Of a DNA stretch of 64,000 nt, positions 7,199 through 64,000 are shown one piece after another. Source of the stretch: a virus; IMG/VR virus record IMGVR_UViG_3300002835_007523, positions 35,094 to 99,093 of that record; one strand, 5' to 3'. A program made the position numbers and the translations under genes. A model generated the notes under the pieces. It was not told the DNA's origin. It did not search any database and saw nothing but the letters and a program-made list of their open reading frames with translations. Numbering within the stretch: position 1 is the stretch's first letter; each line of letters opens with the position of its first letter.

Positions 7199-7825
7199 AT
7201 GGCTAATCTATTCGAGCTAAGTACTTTACAGACGGATCCGTTCCGTAATTTTAAGTTCTTAGTTAACTTTACCCTCAATGACGGTAAGAACGCTACCATA
7301 GGACCAAAGTTTGGAAGCATGGGATTTGTCTCTGTTTCTGGTCTAAGCGTTGCTACCGAAGCAATTAGCTACCGTGAAGGCGGCTACAACACAAACATGC
7401 ATCAGATTCCTGGTCAAAGCTCGTTTACCCCAATCACCCTTTCAAAGGGCATTGCTTTGGGTCAAAGCGAACACTCCCTATGGATGAAGAGACTATTTTC
7501 AGTACTAACTGGCGCACAGGGAGTAGCTGGAGTTGGAACTGAGTTCCGCTGCACAGTGGATATCTCAGTACTAAGTCACCCAAATCCAAAGGGCGTTTCA
7601 GGATCTGATTCAACAGCTACTGTAGCTGAGGCAAAAAACCAGCATACTGCTATGCGCTTCCGCGTATATAATGCATGGGTTACAAGTCTTGCATACAGCA
7701 ACCTTGACGCAGGCGGAAGCTCGCTAATGGTTGAAGAAATGACACTCGTCCACGAAGGATTTGACGTCTCATTTGCTACAGGATACAAGACAGCAGAAGA
7801 CGCCCCAGATCTACTCAGCGTATAA
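7199..7825 (+). CDS. tail tube protein (T4 gp19-like)
   Basis: DPFRNFKF, YREGG, PITLSKG, VYNAW, EEMTLVHEG. Confidence 0.93.
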   Translation: MANLFELSTLQTDPFRNFKFLVNFTLNDGKNATIGPKFGSMGFVSVSGLSVATEAISYREGGYNTNMHQIPGQSSFTPITLSKGIALGQSEHSLWMKRLFSVLTGAQGVAGVGTEFRCTVDISVLSHPNPKGVSGSDSTATVAEAKNQHTAMRFRVYNAWVTSLAYSNLDAGGSSLMVEEMTLVHEGFDVSFATGYKTAEDAPDLLSV

Positions 7826-49207: not shown

Positions 49208-49372
49208 ATGGCACCAATTGACGAAGATGATTGGGACTGGGACAAGATACAGGAAGAATCAGATGGCCCAGATTTTGAAGAAGAGTACGACTCTATTGAT
49301 TGGGACGAAGACGCCCTTGATGAAGAGGAGTTGGAAGATTGGGACTTTGAAGAAGAGGACGAAGAGGTCTAA
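49208..49372 (+). CDS. extremely acidic 54-aa protein (absent from ORF track)
   Basis: MAPIDEDDWDWDKIQEESDGPDFEEEYDSIDWDEDALDEEELEDWDFEEEDEEV; AGGA RBS. Confidence 0.7.
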   Translation: MAPIDEDDWDWDKIQEESDGPDFEEEYDSIDWDEDALDEEELEDWDFEEEDEEV

Positions 49373-49412
49373 CTTCGCGGAATGGGCATACGTATGCCTG
49401 CCTGCCTGCCTG

Positions 49413-49426
49413 CCAACACAAACATT
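49413..49426 (+). repeat. CCAACACAAACATT motif, copy A
   Basis: Exact 14-mer also at 59153-59166 and 61688-61701 on the - strand. Confidence 0.85.
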
Positions 49427-49432
49427 TTAAGA

Positions 49433-49506
49433 CCAATCGCAAGAGAAGAACGGCACGTAACAACTCTTGCGATTGGCCCCTGTCTTGGTGGGAGAAGCCA
49501 CCAAGA
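49433..49506. terminator. two hairpins at the convergence of both arms
   Basis: CCAATCGCAAGAG/CTCTTGCGATTGG and TCTTGGTGG/CCACCAAGA. Confidence 0.6.
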
Positions 49507-49509
49507 ATA

Positions 49510-50139
49510 TTATGCTGTTGCTTCTTCTTGTTCTTTAGCTTTTGCTCTTAAGTCTGCATAGTAGGCTGTTGATTTATCCAGCCATTGCTGTGCAACGGCT
49601 AGGTTTTTTTCTGTCTCCTCATGGTCTGCCGGATCTATTTGAAGTTCCATAAACCTAGAGGGTGCTCTAGTAAGTGATTCAGAAGGGTCTAAGAAGATGT
49701 GCCTGTACGTATACTTTTCTGCGTCACTCCACGTAATTGTCGCAGCCTGTGTATACATGCGGCTATTTTCTATATAGTATTTCCAGCGCTCGCCATCTTC
49801 CCCAACCCATTCCATGCTGGAACCTTCAGTTGTCCATGGAGCCATAACCCCAATGAATAAATCTTCTTGACCGGTTTTGGAGTTGTATCCAACAAGTCTG
49901 AAGGTGTTAGGTTTAGTTCCAGGCTCTGTTTCAAAGCCTAGTTTATTAAATACTGACTCGACTGATTTTGCATTTTCTATGTCAGAGTCATTCATCCAAG
50001 AGAACCACTTGTCTCCGTTAGATGATCCGCCACGTTTGATGGCGTGATACTTCTTTGGCATAGATCTAATAGCTTGTAAAGATCTTGGATTATCCTCAAT
50101 CTCCCAATCAGAACTATGCAGCTCTACGTAGTATCCCAT
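49510..50139 (-). CDS. hypothetical protein
   Basis: 209 aa, AGGAGG RBS. Confidence 0.8.
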   Translation of the reverse strand: MGYYVELHSSDWEIEDNPRSLQAIRSMPKKYHAIKRGGSSNGDKWFSWMNDSDIENAKSVESVFNKLGFETEPGTKPNTFRLVGYNSKTGQEDLFIGVMAPWTTEGSSMEWVGEDGERWKYYIENSRMYTQAATITWSDAEKYTYRHIFLDPSESLTRAPSRFMELQIDPADHEETEKNLAVAQQWLDKSTAYYADLRAKAKEQEEATA

Positions 50140-50164
50140 TTCTTTCCCTCCTAGTTGGTTTTGT

Positions 50165-50404
50165 TTATAGCTTCACTTCAACTACACAGCTGAAGATCTT
50201 GTTGTCATCAGATGCTACCCAAGGTAAACGACCTCGGTTTAGAACACTGGCTGCCCAACGCTTTGCTGGAGCAAGGCTGCCCCAAGCTGAGTAACGGGTT
50301 GGGATGTCATCGGCTCCGCCCACTACCTTTACGTGTGCTAACCACGCTCCGCCCTTTTCCTGGTTTTTTTCTAGCATTACTTGATACTGCACTTTTGCTC
50401 GCAC
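50165..50404 (-). CDS. hypothetical protein
   Basis: AAGGAG before GTG; overlaps the tail of the upstream gene. Confidence 0.65.
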   Translation of the reverse strand: MRAKVQYQVMLEKNQEKGGAWLAHVKVVGGADDIPTRYSAWGSLAPAKRWAASVLNRGRLPWVASDDNKIFSCVVEVKL

Positions 50405-50873
50405 GTTTTGCTCCTTTTGTATTTTGTCTTGTTTTATATACTGTTACACGAAGAGTTCCATCTTCCTTTGGCCATTTGTATGGCAAGTCCTCTGGAACAG
50501 CAAACGTGTAGTGAAGAGGATCTTTACGTTTTAGGTTAGATTGATGGCTCTCGTGAAACTCTTGATTGCCCATCCACCATGGCCTTGATATATCCGGGGG
50601 GATCTCCTTCATTAACTCAGCAACCTGATTGGCTACTGAATCCTTATAACCTCGGTTAACCCACTCTACACACATGGCGAGTGTGTATACGCATAGGCTT
50701 CCCTCATGTCCACGCCACATTACTGCAGCGGGATGATTGCGCCAACCTTTTGTATAACCAAGATTGACCCGTAGTATTTGTAGTGCTTCTACACGCTGTT
50801 TGCCTAGACGTTTGTTGTCTAGGCTGGCGGCAGTCTTTGCATAGTCTGGATATGGAAGGAAAGTATTTACCAT
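50307..50873 (-). CDS. pyrimidine-dimer DNA glycosylase family (MSMEG_6728-like)
   Basis: TFLPYPD..LDNKRLGKQRVEALQI..HPAAVMWRG..HESHQSNL.RKDP.HY. Confidence 0.88.
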   Translation of the reverse strand: MVNTFLPYPDYAKTAASLDNKRLGKQRVEALQILRVNLGYTKGWRNHPAAVMWRGHEGSLCVYTLAMCVEWVNRGYKDSVANQVAELMKEIPPDISRPWWMGNQEFHESHQSNLKRKDPLHYTFAVPEDLPYKWPKEDGTLRVTVYKTRQNTKGAKRASKSAVSSNARKKPGKGRSVVSTRKGSGRSR

Positions 50874-51067
50874 TAGTCTTCCTCCTCAACCTCTGTAACT
50901 TCCCACGCTTCAGTGCCTTCCCACTCTAATGGTTCCGGCAGAGTAGCTTTTTCAAGAAGTAAAGATAGTTCTTCTTCACCAGCACCTCTGGCTTCGTAGT
51001 CATCTTCAGCTTCTATTGTAGTTTCATAGTAGACGGATGATTTTACCTGCACTGTGAACTTGGCCAT
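50873..51067 (-). CDS. small acidic hypothetical protein
   Basis: TAATG coupling. Confidence 0.7.
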   Translation of the reverse strand: MAKFTVQVKSSVYYETTIEAEDDYEARGAGEEELSLLLEKATLPEPLEWEGTEAWEVTEVEEED

Positions 51068-51306
51068 TATTCCTCCTCTCTTGCGTTAAAGCCAATCTTT
51101 TTAAGATCTTTGTAGATCTCAAGAGTTGTTCTATAGTCCGCACTTCTTCCTGAAGAGATTACTATAACTTGATTGGTTTTTGGATTTTTTATACGAATAT
51201 GACCTCTTGATGTTTGAGATATCTGAAGTCCGTTTTTCGAAAGCTTTGCTACTAGCTTTCTCATATCCTTGTCCTTCAGCCGTAGCGTAGCCATCTGGTA
51301 TATCAT
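51067..51306 (-). CDS. HicA-like protein
   Basis: LSKNGLQISQTSRGHIRIKNP..DLKKIGF with conserved GH. Confidence 0.6.
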   Translation of the reverse strand: MIYQMATLRLKDKDMRKLVAKLSKNGLQISQTSRGHIRIKNPKTNQVIVISSGRSADYRTTLEIYKDLKKIGFNAREEE

Positions 51307-51312
51307 TCATGC

Positions 51313-51507
51313 TCACCCCCCATCCTTCTCGTCCATGTTTGTTACGGAAAGCAGTTTGACATGCTCGCCGCCTCTGAGGAAGTCTTTGTTGATGCCGTTC
51401 TTAAGGAACTGGTCGTAGAACCATAAGTCCCATGCTTGCTGTTCGTATGGCTCATTTACACGGCCCTCATAGATTTGCACCTCAAAGACTACTTTTAGTC
51501 TAAGCAT
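51313..51507 (-). CDS. hypothetical protein
   Basis: TAATG coupling. Confidence 0.7.
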   Translation of the reverse strand: MLRLKVVFEVQIYEGRVNEPYEQQAWDLWFYDQFLKNGINKDFLRGGEHVKLLSVTNMDEKDGG

Positions 51508-52136
51508 TACTCGTCCTCTCCTTCTACTTGTAGTTTTTCATCTTTAAGCGCAGCTAAAGCAAGAAGACTGGAGAAACCTCCTTCCCCATCCATCTGTGCT
51601 TGAAACGATCTGTAGCTCATTGGATTGAACCAGCGCTTTAGCATCTTGCCAGCCTTGACTAGCAAGAAACCGCAGGTGTTGTGTTTATCTGTTGTGTCCA
51701 CGTCAAAGGACATATGAAACATTAAGTTAGGATGCTCTTCGCTAAAGCGTCGATATGCATGTAGCGGCGGGATACATTGAGTTACATAGCTGTACGCAAC
51801 GATCCTATTTGCAACCATGCCAGTGTTTAGATTTGCGGTTAGCATCTCTGTTTCTTCATCATCAAGCTCCACGTCGGCTGTAAGTTTTACCTCCATGAAG
51901 TCTTTGAATACACCCCAGTTTTCATCCTTCCAGGTCATAGGATCTATTGCCCCGTATTTCTCTAGCATTGATGGGGTTATTAGATTGGGATCCAAAGACT
52001 TTACTTCGTCTGGAATTGGGATTGCTTTTTCTAACGATATTGGCGATTCAGAAGTAGAGACCCAGTCCATAAACGACTGTATGTCTTCTTTGTTGCCAAG
52101 AACCGTCATCTTATTTTTACATGCTGGTTCGTGCAT
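51507..52136 (-). CDS. DUF1281/YubB-like protein
   Basis: CKNKMTVLG..F..IPIP..WKDENWG..PP. Confidence 0.55.
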   Translation of the reverse strand: MHEPACKNKMTVLGNKEDIQSFMDWVSTSESPISLEKAIPIPDEVKSLDPNLITPSMLEKYGAIDPMTWKDENWGVFKDFMEVKLTADVELDDEETEMLTANLNTGMVANRIVAYSYVTQCIPPLHAYRRFSEEHPNLMFHMSFDVDTTDKHNTCGFLLVKAGKMLKRWFNPMSYRSFQAQMDGEGGFSSLLALAALKDEKLQVEGEDE

Positions 52137-52372
52137 TATTCGTGCCCTTCTTCTAGATGTTTTATGGCTATTGCTTTTGTATGTTTGGCGGTCTGTTCTC
52201 TAGACCAATTGCCAACTATTTCAAACAGCGTACCCTCTTTCTCAAGTTCGTCAAGTACAACCATAGCTACGTGTACTGCTTGCTCGATTATCATGGGTTT
52301 GATCATATCTGGGACGTCAGACATATCCGGTAAGCAACCGAAGTTGTCGTTGTCCTTATTTTCTTCTGCCAT
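52136..52372 (-). CDS. hypothetical protein
   Basis: GAGG RBS, coupled to next gene. Confidence 0.7.
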   Translation of the reverse strand: MAEENKDNDNFGCLPDMSDVPDMIKPMIIEQAVHVAMVVLDELEKEGTLFEIVGNWSREQTAKHTKAIAIKHLEEGHE

Positions 52373-52395
52373 TTCTTTCCCCTCTCGTTGCTTTA

Positions 52396-52968
52396 TTAGT
52401 CTTCGACCGCAGTGTTTGTTGCGGTGACTAATTTGTTCTCAAGGTCAGTAACGAATATCTGTATGTCTTCGTAGAACTTAGCGTCAACATACTGTTCGTC
52501 TGAGATCTTGAGCAACTCGATCATTGCAGACATGCGGTCATACTTAGAGCCTAGGCTCTTGCCACGACCGTACTGCCCTGCGTTCTCTTCCTTCACCCAT
52601 TCCTGGATTATTTGAAGAGCTTCTTTGGATACCGGACTACCCTTTGGTTTCATTGGCCAGGTAGGTATATCTCTAGATTGGATAGTAAAGCTAACAGTTC
52701 CTGGACCCATACCATCACCGTTGTTTCTATAGTGATAGCGATCTATGTTGGTATTGATATCGATGCTACTAATTGTTGGTATAAGACTCAACAGATATTC
52801 TCTATTGCTCTCTGCCCAACGATCGTAGTCGAATCGCTCTACCTGCGTGCTCAAGGCTTTATACTTTTCTATAATTGCCTTGTTCTTTTCCATACGAGTA
52901 ATAGCATCTACTCGTCTAATCAGAAACGGTGCTGTAGACCGTCTCGTCCTCTGAGTCGTTGTTGACAT
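52396..52968 (-). CDS. hypothetical protein
   Basis: 190 aa, GAGGAG RBS. Confidence 0.75.
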   Translation of the reverse strand: MSTTTQRTRRSTAPFLIRRVDAITRMEKNKAIIEKYKALSTQVERFDYDRWAESNREYLLSLIPTISSIDINTNIDRYHYRNNGDGMGPGTVSFTIQSRDIPTWPMKPKGSPVSKEALQIIQEWVKEENAGQYGRGKSLGSKYDRMSAMIELLKISDEQYVDAKFYEDIQIFVTDLENKLVTATNTAVED

Positions 52969-53230
52969 CAGGTTCTCCTCTCTTGTATGATATTGGTTCT
53001 ACTTTAGGTGTTTCCTTTGTATTGCTTGCAGTGAGTATCTTGTCCATATCTTCTGTCTCTAGATTGTTGAGCGCCCATTCCTGAGGCTCAAGCAATTCAT
53101 GTATATCGAAGTTGGAGATATCACTATCTGCTACGAGGTCTGCTGCCTCTAAGCAGAATATGTATGCGTCGTGGTCTGTATCAAACGGACCTATTGCATC
53201 ATTTGTTAGTGTGTCTAGAACGATGTACAA
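52916..53230 (-). CDS. acidic hypothetical protein
   Basis: 104 aa in an overlapping gene chain. Confidence 0.65.
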   Translation of the reverse strand: MYIVLDTLTNDAIGPFDTDHDAYIFCLEAADLVADSDISNFDIHELLEPQEWALNNLETEDMDKILTASNTKETPKVEPISYKRGEPDVNNDSEDETVYSTVSD

Positions 53231-53703
53231 TCTGTTTCACTCCCATCTCCACTGAGCATACTAAGCTCTAGCTCTTCTGCTGCTATTTGATTTGGTAACT
53301 TGCAGTCGTTTACCATTTCTGCACGAGTGCTAAGCATGTCAACTCCCTTGACCGCTCCGATTTGCATACCGACTATAGCCTTGGCATATAGTTGTATGAA
53401 CTTGTGGTCGCTGTCAACGGCCATACCCATAGCCACGATTTCTTTTGCCTTATCTACGTCTGCTTTAGGACCACCTAGTAGGTATTGTCCTGCAGCAATA
53501 GATAGGGGAGATATTGCCATCTTTGGGTTGGATGAGTTGTTTTGTATGTCCTTGGCTAGGTTTTCCCAGAACAGCGGATCATACTTGTTGAAGTCAGCAA
53601 AGTCTCTGAAGGTTTCCTTATAGTTTATAAGAACTATCATTCGAGAGATGTCTTTGCTATCTGCTCTATCCTTGAGTCCATCAAGGATTATCTTTCTGTA
53701 CAT
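53215..53703 (-). CDS. hypothetical protein
   Basis: GGAGG RBS. Confidence 0.75.
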   Translation of the reverse strand: MYRKIILDGLKDRADSKDISRMIVLINYKETFRDFADFNKYDPLFWENLAKDIQNNSSNPKMAISPLSIAAGQYLLGGPKADVDKAKEIVAMGMAVDSDHKFIQLYAKAIVGMQIGAVKGVDMLSTRAEMVNDCKLPNQIAAEELELSMLSGDGSETDCTSF

Positions 53704-53713
53704 ATACCCTCCC

Positions 53714-55705
53714 TTATATTCTCTGTTTTTTCTTAATTGCTCCGACCACTACTTCCTTAGCCAAAGCAAGTAAGTCTTTGCTTGAGTTAACTCGCTTAAA
53801 CAATTCAGCACCATGTTGTAGCTCATACTCCGGGCTACCATACTTGTTGATTGCTTGCTGGTTTCTCTCTTCTATGGAGGCATAGTCTCTGTCACGCATG
53901 ATTAACACCATCGTGGTCAAGATACCCCGCTTGCTGATGCGTTTAATTACATCATCATTTTTATCAGAGTTAAAGACACCGTCCGTAATCATGAACAGCA
54001 TCTTATTCTTACGTTGAGATGACAGTAGTACTTTTTCTGCCATCAGTAACGACTCGTATGGATCGGTACCGCCATTGCCATAGATGAACTTGTACTTGGT
54101 ACGTTCAGCTTTCTGGGCTCTTGTGTATGCGATCTCTGTCTTGTCGTCAAATGCATAGACAGTTACTGGACAGTCTATGTGCTCTAAAGCACGTTTAATA
54201 GTCCAGCACATTAGAGATGCTTGACGATCGTTATTGTCACTGTTCATTGAGCCAGAACGATCGATCAAGATAACAGCTTCTATGTCTGTGCTGTCATCCC
54301 CTTCAGTCCAACGGTCAAAGGCTTCTTCGGCATTCCTATTGCGTATAAACCTACGCACATTCAGCTTGCCGGAAGATACTCCCCTGAACCAGTGTGGTTC
54401 TGAGTCATCTCTAAGCTTTTGTAGTTCGTGTGAGAATTTCTTGTAGTCTAGAAGATTAACTGGTGGGACAGGGACAGAGTCAAAGACTCCAGCCTCGGCC
54501 TCATCGAAATCTTCACGACCAGTTATGATTACTCGCTGCTTTCTGCGTATATCACGTAGAACATCTTTACGTGAATATATGTCTTCTAAAGCATCTTGTA
54601 TATCATCCATTAGATCATTGGGTATACCACCGAAACTCTTGTGGTGTCCGCTACCAGCATTCAAAGAGATCTGATCTTCTAACTCTGGGTCGAGTTGATC
54701 AATGCGTTCTTTGTTTTGCTGACGCAGTTCAAGAGCTTCTTCAGCATTCTGTGGAATTGTTGTAGAACTTATTGGTACTCCATTACCACCTTTTACGATG
54801 GATGATGATTCTTCCGAATCGTCCGGGCCAACTGGGAATCCACAGCCACCAGGCCATTCTTCTTGTTCCTCAGTAACGTCTTGCGGAGTTGCTGGGTCTT
54901 TGGGTGTATAGACTGACTCTCTTGTACCCATGTTTGCAGCAACCTTTGCGTCACGTTCTTGAGCTTTGCCTGGTTCTGGTCTACCCTTGATTAACGGTAG
55001 TCTGTCCATACATCCAGCATGTCCAGCATTCATCATCTCTTGATCTAGCTCATCAAGTACGAGCTTTTGAAACTCCTCGATCAATTGTTGAGCACGTTTG
55101 TAGTCTCTTGGAAATGCTAAGAGTCTGTACTCATCAATGATGCGTTGAATGTCTGGAATTAGTTCTGGTTTGTAGAACATATCTCTAAACGCTTCTCTGA
55201 TATGAACTGGCAAGTAACGTCTACCATAAAGCATTGGGTAGTTTGTCACTGCAGTATCTGGAGTTGCCGCTGCATGCTTGAGTGCAATCTCTTGCAAGTA
55301 GGGCATGACTGATGGATACCTTGCAATGAACAACGTCTCGCATCGTGCGTCCTCCAACAGGTTAAACGCCATGTAAAAACCTGTATCAATGACCCACTTG
55401 ATTATCGTTGTTCCTTTGCGAGGAGAATAGAAGTGATGAGCCAATTCGTGATAGTTAAGACCAGTCACGTTAGTCAGCGTTTCTATATCCATTTCGTCTA
55501 TCTTTGAAGCATTTAGCCAGATCGTTTCACCATCCGACCACGCTGCTGCGTGACCTTCTTTAACGACCTGAACAGTGATAGGATCGCCAGTTAGAACTCG
55601 ATCAGCACCCTCATACACTCTGGCAAGTGTTGAGAGTTGGAGTGCTCGAATCTGTTCTTTCTCAGATCGAAACTCTCCTTGTTCTATCTCATCTACATAT
55701 CCCAT
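53714..55705 (-). CDS. VWA-domain protein with N-terminal HExxH (CobT-like MoxR partner)
   Basis: NYHELAHH..FNLLEDAR; MIDAS DRSGS, GGT, ITDG. Confidence 0.88.
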   Translation of the reverse strand: MGYVDEIEQGEFRSEKEQIRALQLSTLARVYEGADRVLTGDPITVQVVKEGHAAAWSDGETIWLNASKIDEMDIETLTNVTGLNYHELAHHFYSPRKGTTIIKWVIDTGFYMAFNLLEDARCETLFIARYPSVMPYLQEIALKHAAATPDTAVTNYPMLYGRRYLPVHIREAFRDMFYKPELIPDIQRIIDEYRLLAFPRDYKRAQQLIEEFQKLVLDELDQEMMNAGHAGCMDRLPLIKGRPEPGKAQERDAKVAANMGTRESVYTPKDPATPQDVTEEQEEWPGGCGFPVGPDDSEESSSIVKGGNGVPISSTTIPQNAEEALELRQQNKERIDQLDPELEDQISLNAGSGHHKSFGGIPNDLMDDIQDALEDIYSRKDVLRDIRRKQRVIITGREDFDEAEAGVFDSVPVPPVNLLDYKKFSHELQKLRDDSEPHWFRGVSSGKLNVRRFIRNRNAEEAFDRWTEGDDSTDIEAVILIDRSGSMNSDNNDRQASLMCWTIKRALEHIDCPVTVYAFDDKTEIAYTRAQKAERTKYKFIYGNGGTDPYESLLMAEKVLLSSQRKNKMLFMITDGVFNSDKNDDVIKRISKRGILTTMVLIMRDRDYASIEERNQQAINKYGSPEYELQHGAELFKRVNSSKDLLALAKEVVVGAIKKKQRI

Positions 55706-55714
55706 TTATTGCTC

Positions 55715-57106
55715 CTAGTTCTTTGTCTTTAGCCAAGCGTCTACTTCATCTGCGACAGGAGTCTCAGATCCTTTATCTTGTACTAGCTGTACCTCATTGA
55801 GGTTGAACTCTTCACGAAGATTGTATTCGTGAGTTTGGAATACAAGCTGGACCTTGTCCTGCTCGTCCTTGTCAAAGTGTGCAATAAAGTTAGCTACTGC
55901 AAACTCATAGCCAAATGCTGGTATAAAGCGTTCAAGCTCCATTGCCATATTGGTTGAGATTGGAGTTTCAAACTCACCTTTTGCTGCTTCGTTACGCATT
56001 TGCTTGACGATAAGTTTGATGGTCTTAGACTTAATCAACTTATCCTCGACATCGTCGTCGTAGTCCCAGTGAATTTGAACTGAGAAACGATTACGCATAG
56101 CAAAATTGAGCGGCGTAGTACCGACATACTCTGGGTTCATGGTGGCAAAGATCATGAGGTCTGGATGAGCCTCAATTGTCTCGCCGTGATGATCCAATAG
56201 CTGAAGGACACGTCGTCCGTCAAGGAGTGAATATAGACTGGTGTATATCTTTGGCGAGATAAAGTTAAACTCGTCAAGGATGAGTACGCCACCGTTACGA
56301 ACAACGTCAGTAACAGGACCGTCAATCCAGGCAAAGCCACCTGTCTCATGGTCATATATATCTTTACCAAAGAGAGTAGATGTCTCTAGCGCTGCATTGC
56401 CAGACACTTGAGCAACACGCTGTCTGCGTGCAGATGCCCATGCTAGAACTGCAGTAGTCTTACCGGGACCGGTAGGGCCGTAGATAAGGACGTCTTCGCC
56501 CATTTCTTTGGCCTTGTCAAAGCGTTCAAAGTCGGACTTGCCGAATAGAGTGCGATTGACATACTTAGATGCAAGCTCAAGCGGCGGTATTGAAGCTAGT
56601 GCTAGTGATAACACTTTGCCGTGTGTCTGAACCTGTGTAACTGGCGATGTTTGTGTTGGAGCGGACTCTGGCTCATCTCTACGCAGATCGATAATGCTTT
56701 CTGCTAGGGATTTGTCCTCGACGGATACTTTGTCATACAGTTCTTGTATGGCTTCTGTAGCTGGTCTACCATCTACTGTCTTGGAATTCTTGAATGATGA
56801 CAACGCTTTGTTGCCAAGCACTGGAGAATATCCACGCTCACTGATCTGTGTGTAATCACCGTCAGTTACATAGACAGCGATTGGTCGATTAGTTACGGTC
56901 TCGTGTTCAGATACAACGTCCAATAACGAATAGAGAGTAGTCGGTTGCCACTTGTTATGTGGACCTTTTTCTCCATCAGTTACTCTGGAATAAACCAGAA
57001 CTGGAACAGATTCGTTGTTCAGATCATTGTTAGGAACAATAAGAGTTTGACGCTTATTTGCTCCCATAGACGGTGTATACGTCTCGACGAACATCGCTAT
57101 ATTCAT
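55715..57106 (-). CDS. MoxR-family AAA+ ATPase (CbbQ/NirQ/CobS-like)
   Basis: GPTGPGKT, WIDGP, LILDEFN, ATMNP.YVGT.PLN.A..NRF. Confidence 0.9.
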   Translation of the reverse strand: MNIAMFVETYTPSMGANKRQTLIVPNNDLNNESVPVLVYSRVTDGEKGPHNKWQPTTLYSLLDVVSEHETVTNRPIAVYVTDGDYTQISERGYSPVLGNKALSSFKNSKTVDGRPATEAIQELYDKVSVEDKSLAESIIDLRRDEPESAPTQTSPVTQVQTHGKVLSLALASIPPLELASKYVNRTLFGKSDFERFDKAKEMGEDVLIYGPTGPGKTTAVLAWASARRQRVAQVSGNAALETSTLFGKDIYDHETGGFAWIDGPVTDVVRNGGVLILDEFNFISPKIYTSLYSLLDGRRVLQLLDHHGETIEAHPDLMIFATMNPEYVGTTPLNFAMRNRFSVQIHWDYDDDVEDKLIKSKTIKLIVKQMRNEAAKGEFETPISTNMAMELERFIPAFGYEFAVANFIAHFDKDEQDKVQLVFQTHEYNLREEFNLNEVQLVQDKGSETPVADEVDAWLKTKN

Positions 57107-57258
57107 TGTTGCCTTTCCCTTCTTTAGTTGGTATTTCTACCTCACCACTTACACGGTGTAAGTGGCTAGCAAGATAACCAAACCTGTTGGTTACCCTACT
57201 AGCCACTAACTAAATGGGCAAGGGGCTAACGCCGATATGCAGACGCGTTAGCCCCCGG

Positions 57259-57445
57259 CACCGGTATAGGCAAAACTACTTACCGAAGCTACTTACTCGC
57301 AGGAAGGAGATGAATCCAGGTTCTCCGATGATGTAAGCGCTATGCACTTACGATATTCGGCCAGAAACAAGGATTGAGAGCTCTGGTCTACTTTCTTTAG
57401 AGGAAGCCTGTTTTGCCTACCCCTCCGTCAACCGGTGTTGACGAA
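57259..57445 (-). ncRNA. candidate structured RNA (multibranch, loop-loop contact)
   Basis: 10-bp closing stem and four internal stems; mismatches read as G-U on the - strand. Confidence 0.45.
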
Positions 57446-57447
57446 AT

Positions 57448-58173
57448 CTATACTTGCTCAAGAGTTATGGTTGAATCCCAAGCCGCTCTCAATATAGGTG
57501 CACTATCTAACAGTGTGGCTTTCCACTCTTTTGATATTGCCTCTGATATTTCTTTGGTTGATAGGCCCTGTTGTCTACCATCCATATGCCATCTATTGAC
57601 GCACTTCATATACAGAGATATAGACTCTGGCATTGGTTTACCGTTCAATAGTTTGGGGAACTCATTTGCTAGGTCAATAGATAGGGCTGTGTGTTTGTAT
57701 ATGCCTGCCATATTTATGGCAAGAGGACCGTAAAACTTTACGGCATGAGCAGGCCAGCCATTCCTCCAATTATACGTTGACATAATTCTGTATATTCGAA
57801 TTATCTCTACAAGATATCTAGGCCGTAGAGTTTGATTGTTGTACCACTTTATTTTCTTTATTAGTTCGGCTGCAACTAGTAGGGGATAGTCCTCGTATAG
57901 TTGTGTGTAATAACAGGGTAGGTACCCATATTTACCGTTGTAGATTGCTTTTGCTATTACTTCTGGGGGAATCTTTTCTGCAGTTTCATGGCCTTCTGTA
58001 AAATAAAACGGGGTATATAGCGGCCGTTCACCATCTGTAGATAACCACGATGGAACTTCATCTCTTATGAATTTACTGGCTTCATCGTGGTCGTCTTCTC
58101 CTAGTGTTAACACTTCAAGGTCTTGACTTGTGTCTTGATCTCTGTGAGTTAACATAGTTGTTTCATTGGTCAC
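57448..58173 (-). CDS. hypothetical protein
   Basis: 241 aa, AAGGAG upstream. Confidence 0.75.
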   Translation of the reverse strand: MTNETTMLTHRDQDTSQDLEVLTLGEDDHDEASKFIRDEVPSWLSTDGERPLYTPFYFTEGHETAEKIPPEVIAKAIYNGKYGYLPCYYTQLYEDYPLLVAAELIKKIKWYNNQTLRPRYLVEIIRIYRIMSTYNWRNGWPAHAVKFYGPLAINMAGIYKHTALSIDLANEFPKLLNGKPMPESISLYMKCVNRWHMDGRQQGLSTKEISEAISKEWKATLLDSAPILRAAWDSTITLEQV

Positions 58174-58885
58174 CTTTTTCTCCTTCCTTTTCTTTGACTA
58201 TATTTATTAGCAGTTTTGGTTTATGTACTTGAAGTATCTTTCCAGTAGCAAGATCAATAGTTAAAGGATCTCCATCCCACTGAAAAGCTTTTCGTTTACC
58301 GCCCAAATCTCTGTGCCCAACACCGTTGCAAAATCGACATTCGATTTTAGCTCTGTGATTATCTGGGTTGAGATTTGGATTGCTTTGCAAACAGTTACAG
58401 CCGTATACCGTGAAGGTTTGACCACTAAATGTTTTTACCTCTTGATATCTGAATCTGTTAGTGTTTTTATTTCTTGCTTTATCTTTTTGTCCATTGCATT
58501 GATACCAATGTACTCCTTTACCTACGCATTTGGGGCAAGGCACCTTTCTAGTGTCAGTAAAGGTGTCTCCCTCTTGAAGTAAATAGAGTTTATGATTCCT
58601 CTGTACAAGACCTTCAAGGTTTGCATATCTGATTAATACATCTCTTGTTGATGGATAACTAAAGGACCGATCCAAGGCTATAATTGCTAATCCATTTGGA
58701 AGATAGCGAATTAGATCAGGACCCCAGTTTTTGAAATGTATGCCAATAGATGCACCGTCATTTCTGTACGTTGCATACAGTCTTTTGTTGTAGAGAGTTC
58801 TAAAAATCTTTTTTCTACCTCTATCGATGTATGCTTTTGCTGAATCATAATCGTGGACAATTGCATTCCAACGATTACTTGTCAT
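58163..58885 (-). CDS. hypothetical protein with DnaJ-type CxxCxGxG motifs
   Basis: CPKCVGKG and CRFCNGVG; GAAAGGA RBS. Confidence 0.75.
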   Translation of the reverse strand: MTSNRWNAIVHDYDSAKAYIDRGRKKIFRTLYNKRLYATYRNDGASIGIHFKNWGPDLIRYLPNGLAIIALDRSFSYPSTRDVLIRYANLEGLVQRNHKLYLLQEGDTFTDTRKVPCPKCVGKGVHWYQCNGQKDKARNKNTNRFRYQEVKTFSGQTFTVYGCNCLQSNPNLNPDNHRAKIECRFCNGVGHRDLGGKRKAFQWDGDPLTIDLATGKILQVHKPKLLINIVKEKEGEKGDQ

Positions 58886-58965
58886 GGTTTCCTTTCATAT
58901 GTTTGAAGGCAGTTTATCCCTTCACATGCCTAGGTGACGAGCCTGCGTTATTACCTTAGGTAACC

Positions 58966-59065
58966 GGCCATGAAGACCAAGCTGCACCCCTTCCGATGCA
59001 GATAGTGACAACTACCGATGAATCAGGGTTTCGACGGCAAGGCGGTCTCCGTCCTAATGATGGCC
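58966..59065 (-). ncRNA. candidate pseudoknotted RNA 3' of the tRNA
   Basis: GGCCAT/ATGGCC closing stem, three internal hairpins, 8-bp alternative or pseudoknot pairing. Confidence 0.4.
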
Positions 59066-59073
59066 TGTTGTCG

Positions 59074-59147
59074 TGCGCTGTGTAGGACTTGAACCTACGA
59101 CGACCGGATTATGAGTCCGGGGCTCTAACCAACTGAGCTAACAGCGC
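59074..59147 (-). tRNA. tRNA with CAT anticodon (Ile2 or elongator Met); CCA not encoded
   Basis: GCGCTGT TA GCTC AGTTGGTTA GAGC C CCGGA CTCATAA TCCGG TCGTC GTAGG TTCAAGT CCTAC ACAGCGC A. Confidence 0.95.
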
Positions 59148-59152
59148 GGGGG

Positions 59153-59166
59153 AATGTTTGTGTTGG
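59153..59166 (-). repeat. CCAACACAAACATT motif, copy B
   Basis: 5 nt upstream of the tRNA 5' end. Confidence 0.85.
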
Positions 59167-59171
59167 TACGC

Positions 59172-59459
59172 CTATTTATGGCTATCACACGTGCATTCTT
59201 GCCCATCAGCAAGTGCGTATTTACTGTAGTCCACATTAGGTACGGCCATAGTAAATACTCTTATCATGCGTCTAACTTTCCACTCCATTAGTTGTGCAGG
59301 AAATGCTGCACCCCACATGGTGTCATAACTTTGTATCTGATCTACTCGTATGATGGACTCACTGGTCCTATGGCTTTGAGGCCAGTTGTAATTAGTTATC
59401 TTATAGATAACTGGGGTATCACAACGATACCTAACTGATTCATCTATCACTCCATGCAT
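59172..59459 (-). CDS. hypothetical protein
   Basis: TAATG coupling. Confidence 0.7.
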   Translation of the reverse strand: MHGVIDESVRYRCDTPVIYKITNYNWPQSHRTSESIIRVDQIQSYDTMWGAAFPAQLMEWKVRRMIRVFTMAVPNVDYSKYALADGQECTCDSHK

Positions 59460-59788
59460 TACTCATCTCTCTTTCGTGTTCTTCGTATCCGTATAACATA
59501 CAGTTCATCTTCGTCTAAACCTCCCCACACACCAAAGTCTTGACGAGTATTGACTGCAAAGTCAAGGCATTCTGTAGTTACGGTGCAGGTAGCACAGACT
59601 AGCTTTGCCTGTCGTGTTCTTTCATCCTTTTCCGGACCGCGTTCTTGGTCGGGATGAAAGAATAGTTCTGGATCTACAGTTCTACAAGCAGCATCCTCTT
59701 GCCACTGGTAATTCTTTAGCGTCGGTGTAGGTAATCGTTTGATTACTACATTTGTTTGAACAATAGTGCGTCGTATCCTAGAGGACAT
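59459..59788 (-). CDS. whiB: WhiB-family protein (WhiB3/WhiD-like)
   Basis: WQEDAACR..FFHPDQERG..AKLVCATC.V..EC..FGVWGG. Confidence 0.92.
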   Translation of the reverse strand: MSSRIRRTIVQTNVVIKRLPTPTLKNYQWQEDAACRTVDPELFFHPDQERGPEKDERTRQAKLVCATCTVTTECLDFAVNTRQDFGVWGGLDEDELYVIRIRRTRKRDE

Positions 59789-60149
59789 AGATCTTTCCCT
59801 TCTTTGCTAGTTGCTTACGCTTTCTTTTTGATATTGGTTCTATGTATACGCCCATAGATAATGCTTCTTCTAATGTGCGTGCGTTGTTTAGTGACAGCGC
59901 TTTGTGTGCCGGAACTATTACTCCAGTCACGTTCATACCTTCATTACCTACACGGTTGAATCCGTATGGGCTGAAGTAGACATATGGTTTTAGTCTAACC
60001 CTAACCATATATCCGGAGCCTAATCCGTCTGCCATATCTAGTCCGTGAGCAACAGTGCCGCCAGATATTCCAGGTGACTGGAGATACACTGGCTTTGATG
60101 CTTGGTTTAGTCTACGAAGCAGGCGTAGTGTTTCTACTGCCTTGTTCAT
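59778..60149 (-). CDS. hypothetical protein
   Basis: 123 aa, GAAGGG RBS. Confidence 0.7.
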   Translation of the reverse strand: MNKAVETLRLLRRLNQASKPVYLQSPGISGGTVAHGLDMADGLGSGYMVRVRLKPYVYFSPYGFNRVGNEGMNVTGVIVPAHKALSLNNARTLEEALSMGVYIEPISKRKRKQLAKKGKIYVL

Positions 60150-60160
60150 TGTTTCCCTTC

Positions 60161-60529
60161 TTATTCGTATGTTGCTTGAGTTGGGGAAATCAGTGTTATC
60201 TTAGATTCAAATGCGAACAGTTGTTCTATCTGTTGGTCTGTAAGGCTAAGGTATTCACCATCCAGATTAGAACCATTGGTTAGAAGAACATCTCCAACCA
60301 TTACATCATGTGGACCATGATTAGTGTGATAGAGGGCTGTTGCAATAGGGTTTTGATCTAACTGCAGCATCTTGCCCTCTTCATTGCATAGCATGTCTAC
60401 GTTTTGTTTAGGAAGATAGACGCACTCATACAGCCCACCAACAGCAGCCTGAATATCTTTCAGGGTTAGCTTTTCGTATGACTGTATTGTTTTAGAGCCG
60501 TCTGTCTTGAGTAAGACAGTCTTTATCAT
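60161..60529 (-). CDS. DUF3846-like protein
   Basis: LKDIQAAVGG..E..NEEGK..N..AT..D..VGD. Confidence 0.75.
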   Translation of the reverse strand: MIKTVLLKTDGSKTIQSYEKLTLKDIQAAVGGLYECVYLPKQNVDMLCNEEGKMLQLDQNPIATALYHTNHGPHDVMVGDVLLTNGSNLDGEYLSLTDQQIEQLFAFESKITLISPTQATYE

Positions 60530-60766
60530 TTACTTGCCCTTCTTAGTAGTTGTTTTCTTTACTGCTTTCTTTACTGTTTTCTTCTTTGCTGCTTTTTCTT
60601 CTAACTGCTTCTCGAGGTCATCAAGAGCAGAGTTATAACCATCTGTGTATCCTTGGTAGTAAGACTCTCCACTACCTTGGCGCACTCCGAACATCCAGCC
60701 TGTTGCTAAAGCAATGGCTATGAGTGCTACAAAGAATATAACTGTGTATGTATCCATCATCATCAC
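60530..60766 (-). CDS. small membrane protein with Lys-rich tail
   Basis: TM helix, YYQGYTDGY, KKTVKKAVKK. Confidence 0.75.
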   Translation of the reverse strand: MMMMDTYTVIFFVALIAIALATGWMFGVRQGSGESYYQGYTDGYNSALDDLEKQLEEKAAKKKTVKKAVKKTTTKKGK

Positions 60767-60790
60767 CTCCTTTCATTGGTGACTGGTCTC

Positions 60791-61636
60791 TTATAGAGAC
60801 TTGGCTTCTTCTAACTGCTTTGCTAACTCTGCGGCTTGAGCCTCGAGTTCTGCAACCTTTGCTTCTTTGATCTTGGTCTTTGCTGATGCAAAGAATGATG
60901 CCAACTCAGCAACCTCATCCATAGAAAAGTCTAGGGTTCTGAATCCCTTGGACACCTCTACAGACATAGAGTGTGGGTTGACGGTGTAAGTAAGTTCGCG
61001 GCTGCCGTTATCGCAGCAGCAACGACGCTTGTAGCAACGTCCGCACATATTGTAATCACCCCCTAAGTTGTTCTCTTTTTCGAACTCTTCTCTTCGTTTA
61101 TAATGGTCAAAGTCTCTGACCAGCTTGCGAATAGAGTTATCGAAATGACCTTCATTCCAACTGTGCTTTGTTATGAGTTCCTCGACGGACTCGAACCAGA
61201 AAGACATGAACGCCTTATCTGAAGTTACCGGAGCATCAAAGGCTTTGAAATGGAAGAACTTGTCGACTTCATCGTCATAGAAGATGCTGTCATCCCTCCA
61301 TGCATACCTGTATGAGTGCATATGGCTTGGATCAGTCAATACGCCGTATACATATTCCGGAGATACTTCTCGTATACATAGGAATTTGTCTGAATCACGA
61401 CGTACACCGCATGACATATCTACAATGTGAAAGCGTTCGTCATCATAGACTAGCGTTCTTGGATAGTCTGTCATGACTTTAGCGTACTTGTGCCAGTCCT
61501 CAGAGGCAGACACTTTGTGGTTACCTCTGTTTAGATAACTGCCGCGCTCACCATTTTTATAGTAGTAGAGATACATACTAAGTGATCGTTTTTGCGTTTC
61601 TGGTAAAAGGTCGAGAAGAGCGGAATTTCCGTTCAT
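60791..61636 (-). CDS. hypothetical protein
   Basis: Start moved to MNGNS (GAGGTG RBS); CGRC..CCC. Confidence 0.75.
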   Translation of the reverse strand: MNGNSALLDLLPETQKRSLSMYLYYYKNGERGSYLNRGNHKVSASEDWHKYAKVMTDYPRTLVYDDERFHIVDMSCGVRRDSDKFLCIREVSPEYVYGVLTDPSHMHSYRYAWRDDSIFYDDEVDKFFHFKAFDAPVTSDKAFMSFWFESVEELITKHSWNEGHFDNSIRKLVRDFDHYKRREEFEKENNLGGDYNMCGRCYKRRCCCDNGSRELTYTVNPHSMSVEVSKGFRTLDFSMDEVAELASFFASAKTKIKEAKVAELEAQAAELAKQLEEAKSL

Positions 61637-61687
61637 ACTCACCTCTCTCCTACCTGTTGGACAGGCAGGCAGCAGGGCATGGGCGCG

Positions 61688-61701
61688 AATGTTTGTGTTG
61701 G
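61688..61701 (-). repeat. CCAACACAAACATT motif, copy C
   Basis: Intergenic; enclosed by GGCATGG/CCATGCC. Confidence 0.85.
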
Positions 61702-61726
61702 CGACCATGCCTCACTGTCTGACTAT

Positions 61727-62050
61727 TCAGTCTGAGTAATACTCGTTCAAGAGTCTGTACTCTAATCTATCTTTGCCACGCATGAAGCGATACACATACT
61801 TTCTGTACCAGCCATTGAAGAAGCGTTGCTTTACAAAGTCTATGCATACGTCAAAGATCTCTGTATTGGGGTTGTATTCCTGCAGGGCATTTTCCATCGC
61901 ATCATTGAGGAAGCAACCATCGCCCTCTTCATCTTTGTAGTTCCAAGTAATAGGCTCATCACCGTAGTAATAGATGGTGGCCAATATAACCTTGCGTTTG
62001 AGCGGGATTAGATTGCCTTGCTCATCATCTCTGAATCGTTTTATTCTCAT
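61727..62050 (-). CDS. hypothetical protein
   Basis: Start moved to MRIKRF (GGAGGTG RBS, ATGA overlap). Confidence 0.7.
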   Translation of the reverse strand: MRIKRFRDDEQGNLIPLKRKVILATIYYYGDEPITWNYKDEEGDGCFLNDAMENALQEYNPNTEIFDVCIDFVKQRFFNGWYRKYVYRFMRGKDRLEYRLLNEYYSD

Positions 62051-62175
62051 TTCACCTCCCTGTTGAATGTTGGATCGCAATCTGGGCAAGAAGAAACCCA
62101 CCTTACTTGTGAGGCGCCGAAGCCCCCGAACATACTTCCTTCAGCACACTTGAGGCAGACAAATACAATACTCAT
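62047..62175 (-). CDS. 42-aa CxxC..CxxC protein (absent from ORF track)
   Basis: GGAGG RBS; MSIVFVCLKCAEGSMFGGFGASQVRWVSSCPDCDPTFNREVK. Confidence 0.65.
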   Translation of the reverse strand: MSIVFVCLKCAEGSMFGGFGASQVRWVSSCPDCDPTFNREVK

Positions 62176-62303
62176 TAGCCACCTCCTGTGGGCTTGTGCT
62201 TGACGCCACATGAGGGGCATGTAACGCCATTGAGAGTAAGTGCGTCAAGTGTTATCAACTTGCCACACTTACATTTGATGATGCGGGCGGGGATACTTAC
62301 CAT
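62175..62303 (-). CDS. 42-aa CxC..CxxC protein (absent from ORF track)
   Basis: MVSIPARIIKCKCGKLITLDALTLNGVTCPSCGVKHKPTGGG; TAATG-coupled. Confidence 0.6.
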   Translation of the reverse strand: MVSIPARIIKCKCGKLITLDALTLNGVTCPSCGVKHKPTGGG

Positions 62304-62557
62304 GTCCGCTCAGCAAACCTAGCAGCAGCCTCAGTCTGATTATCAAAGTAATCACCTGAATGGCAGGCACCGCTTATTTCGTTGTATGACCATACGACAT
62401 ACGGATGATGTGGGGATGCGGGGGCATGACAAAGCACTATTGTGCAATGTGGTTCATTATTGACTGGTTTAGACAACAATACTGTCGCCCCAGCAGAAGC
62501 CCCCTTACCCTGCAGAACAATACCTGTCTTGACAACAGATACTATTTGATCGCTCAT
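62297..62557 (-). CDS. hypothetical protein
   Basis: 86 aa, AAGGGAG RBS; PYVVW..GDYF. Confidence 0.75.
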   Translation of the reverse strand: MSDQIVSVVKTGIVLQGKGASAGATVLLSKPVNNEPHCTIVLCHAPASPHHPYVVWSYNEISGACHSGDYFDNQTEAAARFAERTW

Positions 62558-62586
62558 AGACTCTCCCTTCTCGGCCTAGACAGCCG

Positions 62587-62627
62587 TAGACCCCAGCGAA
62601 ACCGACGGAAAATTTCGCGGGGGCCTA
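62587..62627 (-). other. intergenic stem-loop
   Basis: TAGGCCCC.GCGAAAT/GTTTCGC.GGGGTCTA on the - strand. Confidence 0.55.
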
Positions 62628-62634
62628 AAGCAGC

Positions 62635-62922
62635 CTAGTCTGCTTCTCTAGAGGAAAACAGGGGAGTTACATTGTCAGGTACTGGAACACAGCAATCACC
62701 CTGACATTTAGTAGGGTCGAAAGTCCATTTGAACTCGCCCCCACACTCTGTCTTGAATAGAACACCATCATCTATCCAATCAAGAGCTTTAGCCATACCC
62801 TCACTGATCAGATGTCGTTTGGACATGTGAAATGTAGTCACACCAACTACACCTGCGATAATGAGGTCTATAAACAGATTGAAACCATTGTAAAACATGA
62901 TTTCACCACCCACGGGCATCAC
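62635..62922 (-). CDS. small membrane protein
   Basis: N-terminal TM segment; start uncertain. Confidence 0.65.
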   Translation of the reverse strand: MMPVGGEIMFYNGFNLFIDLIIAGVVGVTTFHMSKRHLISEGMAKALDWIDDGVLFKTECGGEFKWTFDPTKCQGDCCVPVPDNVTPLFSSREAD

Positions 62923-62926
62923 CTCC

Positions 62927-63157
62927 TTATGTTGTGGGAATATTCAGTTGCGTAGTAGAAGAATCGGCGGGAATCCAAGTTACTATTGAGTCAAGGAAGA
63001 GATGTTTGTGTTGGCAATCAGTGCATTGTGCGGTGACTGAGCAATCGTCGTTTTTAGTGAGATACTCCTCGTTGATACGAGGGTGTGCCGCGTATGTAAT
63101 GACATTAGGTGTCTTACACACAAGGCAGGTGTAATCGAGCCATATTGGGGCTCCCAT
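62927..63157 (-). CDS. zinc-ribbon protein
   Basis: CLVC..CTDC; AAGGAGG RBS. Confidence 0.75.
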   Translation of the reverse strand: MGAPIWLDYTCLVCKTPNVITYAAHPRINEEYLTKNDDCSVTAQCTDCQHKHLFLDSIVTWIPADSSTTQLNIPTT

Positions 63158-63166
63158 ATTTCCTCC

Positions 63167-63328
63167 TTAGTTAGATATGAGGGAAGACATATCACGTTTG
63201 ATAGTGATGTACGCAGCAGCGCATGGATAACAGTATTTGCCTGTCATCTGTATCTCAAAGATCATTGTGGCATCAACGCCAGAATGAACGAGATTTGTAT
63301 TACTACAGCCGGGTGTAGCACAACTCAT
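63167..63328 (-). CDS. 53-aa Cys-containing protein (absent from ORF track)
   Basis: GGAGGTG RBS; MSCATPGCSNTNLVHSGVDA..KYCYPCAAAY.. Confidence 0.7.
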   Translation of the reverse strand: MSCATPGCSNTNLVHSGVDATMIFEIQMTGKYCYPCAAAYITIKRDMSSLISN

Positions 63329-63537
63329 TTACTCACCTCCTTATGTTTAGACTCAAGTAGCAGATTAGCGTTCTTGAGACAGGTATCGCACCCACACGAG
63401 TCTCGTAGGGCATTTACAATCTCATAGAACTCCCATGTGCCTATCGTGATAGTCGTTTGACCGATGTCCATACAGACCCTCCTGTCGTATGTGATAACAG
63501 CATGACCCTCATGCCGAAAACCTGGTTGCTCTGCCAC
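63325..63537 (-). CDS. hypothetical protein
   Basis: CGCDTC; ATGA overlap with next gene; start uncertain. Confidence 0.55.
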   Translation of the reverse strand: MAEQPGFRHEGHAVITYDRRVCMDIGQTTITIGTWEFYEIVNALRDSCGCDTCLKNANLLLESKHKEVSK

Positions 63538-63716
63538 ACAGTTGAGTGGCGTGCGTCACAGTGGCCTATTCTTCTAACAGAGATGTTAGAGAACTAAGAT
63601 TATAGTTTCTCCATAGCGACACACAGAGGGCGGGAAAGTATAAGACCCCCTGTGTGCCACTAAAGAGAGAGAGACTATGCCCCTTCTGACATAGTCTCTC
63701 CCCTGCCTCTAGCGTC

Positions 63717-63998
63717 TTACGCTAGAAGTGTAGTTAGCAAGGCTTGAACCTTGACTAACTCAGCACGCTCAGCTGAATTGAGCGATGTGTCGACATTGGC
63801 AACGAGAACGTCTGCGAATGCTGGTGCTTGCTTGACAATGTCAATAGCAGCAGCATCACGAGCAGCGCTTCGTGCGTCAGCCTTAGCCTCACCCTCAAGA
63901 ATGAGTGCGTCGAACGCATCATTGAGGGCTTCGTCGGCAGTTGTCTCTAGGGCAGACTTGATGTCTTCCCATGAGACGAACTTGGCAGCAAGAGAAGC
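63717..63998 (-). CDS. Ala-rich hypothetical protein, 5' end outside window
   Basis: Open frame ASLAAKFVSWEDIKSALE..VQALLTTLLA* running to the window edge. Confidence 0.7.
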   Translation of the reverse strand, partial: ASLAAKFVSWEDIKSALETTADEALNDAFDALILEGEAKADARSAARDAAAIDIVKQAPAFADVLVANVDTSLNSAERAELVKVQALLTTLLA

Positions 63999-64000
63999 GG

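Follow-up and report, generated by a model that had tools for sequence, protein, structure and literature searches.

A strictly oriented, evenly spaced 12-base word in one gene block of a clade of uncultured lake phages

Why would a phage write the same 12 bases, always the same way round, through one of its gene blocks and far less densely elsewhere? The question is raised by a 64,000-nucleotide window, the whole stretch of DNA analyzed here, which comprises bases 35094-99093 of the 99,093-bp IMG/VR phage record IMGVR_UViG_3300002835_007523 (G+C 43%). Transcription runs rightward over ~84 kb, through the head, tail, fiber and replication genes and nrdJ, and a leftward gene block of ~15 kb (window 49510-64000, - strand, running beyond the window end) carries an array of the word CCAACACAAACA. 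The 13-mer form, CCAACACAAACAT, is present exactly five times in the 99-kb genome, with all five copies inside or at the edge of the leftward block and each in the sense of the local genes. Judged from its sequence, the array is a real, polar and functional nucleic-acid signal. We put at roughly 40% the probability that the word is where a factor encoded by the phage docks to act on transcription complexes as they travel through the block.

An original prediction, made from the letters alone, had reported an exact 14-mer, CCAACACAAACATT, at 49413-49426 (+), 59153-59166 (-) and 61688-61701 (-), a 13-mer at 63002-63014 (-) and a 12-nt core at 7387-7398 (+). All of these positions are correct, and the list had overlooked one exact 13-mer at 56647-56659 (-). 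With up to two mismatches allowed there are six matches against 0.6 expected, a number that none of 100 shuffles reached, and the word is the most repeated 11- to 13-mer of the 99,093-bp genome, collagen-like repeats excepted. The gene cut at the window end resumes at the record start, so the leftward block extends to a promoter-like site at genome 551-543; the predicted promoter of the block is GAGATAATCT at genome 552-543. The leader (genome 240-551, - strand), which is 200-300 nt long and lies downstream of this promoter-like site, holds the variant CCGCAACAAACATT, in the same place in G000 and G004 (G004:C1 ~2852). The variant CCGCAACAAACA occurs twice in sense, once in the leader (genome 349-360) and once near the end of an open reading frame (ORF) (Table 1). 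Sigma-70-like promoter matches number 16 in the block versus 26 in shuffles, and this scarcity, together with the one promoter-like site before the leader, makes a single long operon plausible. Far from the block, a near copy in the tail-tube gene, ACAACACAAACAT, has a counterpart, ACAACACAAACGT, in a relative; the protein is conserved at this place, and the match is probably a coincidence of coding that does not belong to the array.

The array is not confined to this genome. Relatives were retrieved via the ATPase and via the major head protein, which gave ten blocks and then eight more (18 in total); megablast against the phages collection found no relative. The 12-mer core or a close variant of it persists in at least 18 related lake-phage records, whose proteins are only 45-75% identical to those of this phage (ATPase identity 47-61% and capsid identity 57-75% among relatives), and the 11-mer core is invariant although the motif flanks are unalignable. 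The array-bearing phages are a clade of uncultured ~100-kb lake phages with probable actinobacterial hosts. We searched for copies with the degenerate word YCRMMACAAACA, using the reversed word as a control, which gave 0-1 matches per genome. Sense copies number 53 in the first ten blocks and 61 in the eight further ones, and neither set has an antisense copy inside a block. The claim that the word always follows the local genes, true of all five exact copies here, is thus exceptionless across ~18 genomes, and the cross-phage orientation count that the original prediction had proposed as a check stands at 114 sense and 0 antisense inside 18 blocks.

Polarity is matched by restriction to a single block. 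Each genome has 5-11 sites in one 10-15 kb block and only 1-4 in the rest of its 100 kb, and the density in the 15-kb block is ~10-fold that of the other 84 kb. All 16 blocks that extend to the convergent junction have a single inverted copy there, 0.9-3 kb past the last copy in sense. The word carries ~22 bits of information and varies in concert within a genome, as CCGACACAAACA in one relative (L061) and CCGCAACAAACA as the majority form in another (L063), and the junction copy carries the same variant. Such concerted variation points to one specific, co-evolving reader. Beyond the close clade the word fades: 52 distant lake-phage MoxR loci are essentially without it, and three related loci have one copy each. 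These distant MoxR-sharing groups have repeated oriented words of their own. The L085 group has nine canonical promoters (TTGACAAATGT-N-TATAAT) in the homologous block, e.g., at 4230, 6697 and 9335; L064-L068 have GTGAAAAAATGAATACA (nine sites in L064), a variant of which is found in L110 and L079; and L075-L077 have ATATTTTTTAGGGGA (17 sites in L075).

The copies are also evenly spaced. Across 75 gaps the median is 1.4 kb and the minimum 608 bp, and the coefficient of variation of the spacing is 0.14-0.47 versus 0.65-0.87 for random placement in 13 of 13 blocks tested (combined p ~5e-15, to be read as an upper bound on significance because the genomes are related). Even spacing fits a machine moving along the block rather than gene-start signals. 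It continues straight through genes: about half of the copies lie inside ORFs, in all three reading frames. The ATPase copy encodes an invariant PTQTS island in an otherwise gapped and variable linker, and 17 of 18 relatives have it, at shifted positions and in differing codon phases. The VWA gene of relatives has the word in a low-complexity linker, where it is read PTQT in some genomes and NTN in others. A word kept inside genes independently of frame indicates selection on the nucleic acid. We also considered whether the ATPase linker is a hot spot of recombination and rejected this, as the N- and C-terminal parts of the protein give the same relationships among nine genomes.

Is the word then simply borrowed from the host? 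Our host sample comprised 201 genomes (~520 Mb) of the order of a "Candidatus Nanopelagicales" metagenome-assembled genome, the host assignment itself being inferred; phages of Nanopelagicales have been isolated (PMC10202952). The word has ~50 matches in these genomes (~0.25 per genome, at most three) against ~25 (0.12 per genome) for the reversed control. This lack of enrichment speaks against the word being Chi-like, a class of host promoter, a site for a general ribonuclease or a pairing partner of a conserved host RNA. The existence, polarity and conservation of the array, its even spacing, its independence of reading frame, its restriction to one block and its scarcity in the probable host order are all observed.

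What kind of reader would such an array serve? Polarity, extent over one block, even spacing through genes, the inverted junction copy and the information content together fit best a signal for a machine that travels one way, for which the transcription elongation complex is the obvious candidate. A logo of 95 non-redundant sites shows an unconserved upstream flank, the 12-mer, W at +13 and a C/G-rich, T-poor patch at +15 to +19. We suggest that a clade-specific, probably phage-encoded factor docks on the 12-mer with this weak patch 3-7 nt downstream, and that it would read the word one way only, whether as duplex DNA, as the exposed non-template strand or as RNA just emerging from the polymerase. 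With sites every 1-2 kb, a polymerase in the block would always be near one, and the spacing would be upheld by writing the word into the flexible linkers of the two longest genes, while the single inverted junction copy would face transcription from the opposite block. The effect may be a stop of elongation, for timed shut-off and insulation as with stoperators, or the polymerase may be kept loaded with a processivity or termination factor, as with ops or nut. By analogy with RfaH at ops, a length of 12 nt and a GC-rich, T-poor downstream patch would suit recognition in a paused elongation complex. Here we infer that transcription is the process concerned and a phage protein the reader, as well as the direction of the effect. 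It is tempting to go further and propose an undescribed operon punctuation system, in which a novel factor outside the NusG, sigma and helix-turn-helix (HTH) families would read the word on the bubble or the nascent RNA and govern elongation or termination over 10-15 kb, with the terminal inverted copy insulating the block against convergent transcription, though this fuller version is doubtful.

Several results weigh against a docking factor. Pfam and PHROGs searches on ~45 proteins of the phage gave no regulator match and no candidate reader, and the NusG family (PF02357) was negative in the phage genome, which has no RfaH homolog either. The clade-specific protein F2 (Table 1) was rejected as the reader because its AlphaFold model (pLDDT 77) has no informative fold match in the PDB (Foldseek, none at E <= 0.001). 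If the word stops polymerases, its recurrent place outside the block, in the leader of the head-gene operon between a hairpin and the ribosome-binding site (four of five genomes), is hard to explain. If it prevents stopping, the difficulty lies with the several copies 0-8 nt before strong terminators at convergent boundaries. Nor does a pure spacing model predict the excess of copies just after stop codons, 0-14 nt past which intergenic copies tend to begin, and 10-30 nt before start codons with a ribosome-binding site, where 18 of 100 sites lie, at variable distance, against 6.7 expected. The head-operon copy has been lost in this phage (genome 19740-19840, L116; compared with G001:57800-57900), where the hairpin and word of G001-G004 are missing and the ribosome site and start are identical. 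Another recurrent place outside the block is just before the bidirectional terminator where a lone leftward gene meets rightward genes.

Table 1. Copies of the word and neighboring features (window positions)
Feature	Position	Strand	Remarks
Junction copy, CCAACACAAACAT	49413..49425	+	40 nt past last + gene, at convergent boundary
Copy inside MoxR-type ATPase gene	56647..56659	-	exact 13-mer
Intergenic copy	59154..59166	-	5 nt past stop of ORF 59172-59459, 6 nt before tRNA-Met
Intergenic copy	61689..61701	-	loop of GGCATGG/CCATGCC hairpin (61676-61711)
Copy inside 76-aa four-Cys zinc-ribbon ORF (62927-63157)	63002..63014	-	read C-Q-H-K-H
Variant, CCGCAACAAACA	52413..52424	-	sense; 5 codons before stop of ORF 52396-52968
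Decayed copy, CCAACCCAAAGAT	53519..53531	-	sense; 2 mismatches; ~3.1 kb past ATPase copy
Near copy in tail-tube gene, ACAACACAAACAT (ACAAC...)	7386..7398	+	conserved GYNTN coding stretch
HicA-like basic protein, 79 aa	51067-51306	-	weak PF07927 match; PHROG 2089
VWA protein	53714-55705		leftward block
MoxR-type AAA ATPase	55715-57106	-	
F2, clade-specific basic protein, 240 aa	58163-58885	-	two DnaJ-type CxxCxGxG zinc fingers; directly downstream of tRNA
tRNA-Met (CAT)	59073-59147	-	immediately downstream of motif copy 59154-59166
WhiB protein	59459-59788		leftward block

The surroundings of individual copies are more varied than the word itself. A GGCAT..ATGCC palindrome and a (TGCC)3-4 run adjoin two copies (window 49385-49412 and 61660-61683), as the original prediction had noted for 49413 and 61689. 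The junction copy comes after the palindrome GGCATACGTATGCC and (TGCC)4 and has a 13-bp hairpin 8 nt downstream; the junction site of relatives has GGGCATACGTAT and then (CCG)3 in place of palindrome and TGCC. The copy at 61689 is indeed the loop of a hairpin with a 7-bp GC stem (-15.8 kcal/mol, z -3.3); downstream come TGCC repeats, then a ribosome-binding site and the ATG at 61635. This context holds for these two copies and is not general: only 10 of 55 sites lie in a stem-enclosed loop, not significantly different from shuffled flanks, and display in a loop was rejected as a rule. The arrangement of word and tRNA recurs in two relatives (G002 and G003; gap 11-12 nt) and not in L062. The decayed copy is not the VWA-linker copy of relatives, since it sits in ORF 53215-53703, which adjoins the VWA gene. 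An argument from leaderless mRNAs, based on copies abutting ATG, was dropped, because in G002 and G003 the first gene most likely includes the copy as its codons 2-5 (MSTQT, where G004 has MSTKT).

The original prediction had left a choice between a protein-binding site on DNA and an RNA signal for processing or antitermination. That the word is a polar, functional nucleic-acid signal stood up; the mechanism has been narrowed rather than settled. One alternative to the docking factor is a tag in the mRNA, read by an endoribonuclease or RNA-binding protein of the phage (e.g., the HicA-like protein) or of the host, so that the block transcript is cut up, the tRNA released or messages shut off at a set time. 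An RNA signal can work only in the sense orientation, and many copies stand where one might act: at compact TAA-motif-SD-ATG junctions (SD, Shine-Dalgarno), which are numerous, upstream of tRNA-Met by 6-12 nt, or past a stop codon and ahead of a terminator hairpin, where an element of a 3' untranslated region has to be. Flanks are also somewhat more structured than random 40-mers (upstream p = 0.001), which is typical of single-stranded cleavage sites beside hairpins, and the block encodes a protein with a HicA_toxin match, though at E = 1.4e-3 and 19 bits against a cut-off of 27 this is sub-threshold. However, the cost of opening the site is 3.1 kcal/mol versus 2.2 with shuffled flanks, the wrong direction for an accessible single-stranded RNA site, which we therefore rejected. 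As the word is neither kept accessible nor regularly looped, the hairpin and TGCC context is local. The two longest conserved genes carry the best-conserved copies in mid-gene, where they would be covered by ribosomes and a cut would ruin the message; even spacing that includes the junction copy is unexpected for RNA sites on different transcripts; and a specificity of twelve bases would be unusual for a protein ribonuclease. The HicA-like protein was rejected as the reader, its Pfam match being weak and its gene present in only about half of the first ten related blocks. A trans-acting complementary RNA was rejected as well, with no independent anti-motif in phage sense transcripts and no conserved copy in the probable host order. 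Altogether, an RNA tag seems unlikely.

Could each copy instead be a stand-alone promoter, with an unrecognized phage factor, perhaps a divergent sigma-like protein or WhiB with SigA, directing host RNA polymerase to start at or just after the word? Orientation, the excess before start codons, the copies just before the tRNA and a head gene, and the poverty of the block in sigma-70-like matches are all consistent with this, and a distant group has nine TTGACA-N17-TATAAT promoters at similar spacing in its homologous block. Set against them, about half of the copies are mid-gene, ~1 kb from any gene start, others precede strong terminators or, at the junction, face no gene, and a start 6-8 nt downstream in TAA-motif-AGGAGG-ATG junctions would lose the ribosome site. 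The 95-site logo has no -10 or -35 partner at any distance from the word, and a composite SigA promoter, with the word as -35 or UP element, was rejected because a TANNNT or TTG hexamer is enriched at no fixed distance. Sigma region 2 was not found in the phage genome. A promoter for a phage RNA polymerase was likewise rejected, as no such enzyme was found there: PF00940 (T7-type) has no match in the phage, nor in control genomes, no long ORF has the DxDGD motif of two-barrel polymerases, and the large proteins of unassigned function have no polymerase-like matches and look structural. Promoters are thus highly improbable. A DNA signal apart from transcription, serving replication (lagging-strand priming, polar fork barriers or head-on conflicts), Chi-like protection from nucleases, or DNA entry or packaging, is quite improbable too. 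Spacing of 1-2 kb resembles that of Okazaki fragments or barriers, orientation flips exactly at the convergent junction as in fork traps and Chi or KOPS skews, and frame-independent copies in genes suit reading at the DNA level. However, a signal for replication or packaging would be expected to work across the genome rather than be ~10-fold denser in 15 kb, host genomes should be rich in a Chi-like word and are not rich in this one, and placement by stop codons, start codons and hairpins points to gene expression.

Among known systems, the stoperators of Cluster A mycobacteriophages (L5 gp71 and the TipsytheTRex repressor) (PMC9283540, PMC6550527) come nearest to the array in logic; the original prediction had compared it with those of L5. 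Stoperators are asymmetric 13-mers whose orientation correlates with the direction of transcription (PMC9283540). Like them, our word is short and asymmetric (12 nt rather than 13), is repeated many times, strictly follows transcription, with the junction copy in the sense of the opposite block, and implies one specific reader, and the host is probably actinobacterial as well. The array is nevertheless not a member of this family. Stoperators occupy more than 20 sites genome-wide, mostly in short intergenic gaps, with an operator at the early lytic promoter, whereas here there are 5-11 sites in one block, about half of them inside ORFs, and the predicted promoter is free, the nearest site being a variant ~190 nt downstream of it in the leader. 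Stoperator phages are temperate (integrase or partition system, prophages) and encode a monomeric repressor with two HTH-type domains. This phage looks virulent: its genome has no tyrosine or serine recombinase or integrase, and a search of 185,579 species, one genome each, gave no related prophage. It has no match to HTH_3 (Cro/CI-type repressors), although it may encode a divergent repressor. Spacing is even here and the sequence is unrelated. Four of six defining stoperator features tested are absent, so the array is not a stoperator network of the L5 type.

The ops element read by RfaH in Escherichia coli offers another comparison. It is a strand-specific 12-nt word of long operons, each of which normally has one or two copies, and RfaH reads it on the non-template strand while the elongation complex is paused. 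Our word resembles it in length, strand specificity, the GC-rich patch that follows and the position of the first copy in or near the leader (G000, G002, G003 and G004), and differs in forming an even array of many copies in a phage that has no NusG-family gene. Host NusG as the reader would predict copies of the word in the host, and the host order shows no enrichment. Unlike lambda-type nut sites (boxA plus a boxB hairpin), the word has no consistent enclosing or adjacent structure, with downstream hairpins at a subset only. T4 RegB inactivates early mRNAs by cutting GGAG (4 nt) inside their ribosome-binding sites; like RegB sites, ours would be a phage-specified signal repeated through messages, often between cistrons, that could time inactivation, but it is a 12-nt CA-rich word in a phage without a RegB homolog. 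It is unlike Chi in not being over-represented in the probable host order. Lytic Microbacterium phages have an 18-bp motif (Cluster EC) and start-associated sequences (SAS; Clusters EF and K) (PMC7302621). The similarity lies in lytic actinophages carrying 10-12 same-direction copies of an asymmetric word, and some of our copies too are just upstream of ribosome-binding sites. However, the EC motif lies at a fixed 21-30 bp before start codons and SAS at the ribosome site, both in intergenic positions only (PMC7302621), whereas here the distance to the start varies, about half of the copies are in genes and some precede terminators. Even spacing, frame-independent copies in genes, restriction to one block and a terminal inverted copy are particular to this array. 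A literature search on the word itself found nothing relevant. To our knowledge, networks of oriented repeats have been described in a few cultured actinophages, with a mechanism for the L5-type stoperators alone.

The WhiB gene of the block marks an actinobacterial host. Besides the genes in Table 1, the block encodes a DenV-like pyrimidine-dimer glycosylase, a DUF3846 protein and many small ORFs without an assigned family; Rfam matched the tRNA and no other known RNA family. By its sequence, the 79-aa HicA-like protein is possibly a phage mRNA interferase or a double-stranded-RNA-binding fold. Three direct repeats of ACGGACA (genome 600-594, 582-576 and 573-567, - strand) lie just upstream of, and overlap, the -35 of the predicted promoter; they may form an operator or a site for an activator, separate from the 12-mer. 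Across the junction, the last rightward ORF (window 49208-49372, +) encodes an extremely acidic, Trp-rich peptide of 54 aa (MAPIDEDDWDWD...) without a family match, possibly a DNA mimic or anti-restriction type protein.

The array is unusually clean, with an invariant core, perfect polarity, measured even spacing and in-gene copies across frames, and it recurs in the genomes of ~20 uncultured lake phages, whose probable hosts are abundant freshwater actinobacteria. In annotation, it can flag members of this phage clade and show where their leftward block begins and ends. It also offers a handle on how a virulent phage with no recognizable regulators controls a long operon with host polymerase, and it may lead to a new class of factors that act at specific sequences in elongation, termination or RNA processing.

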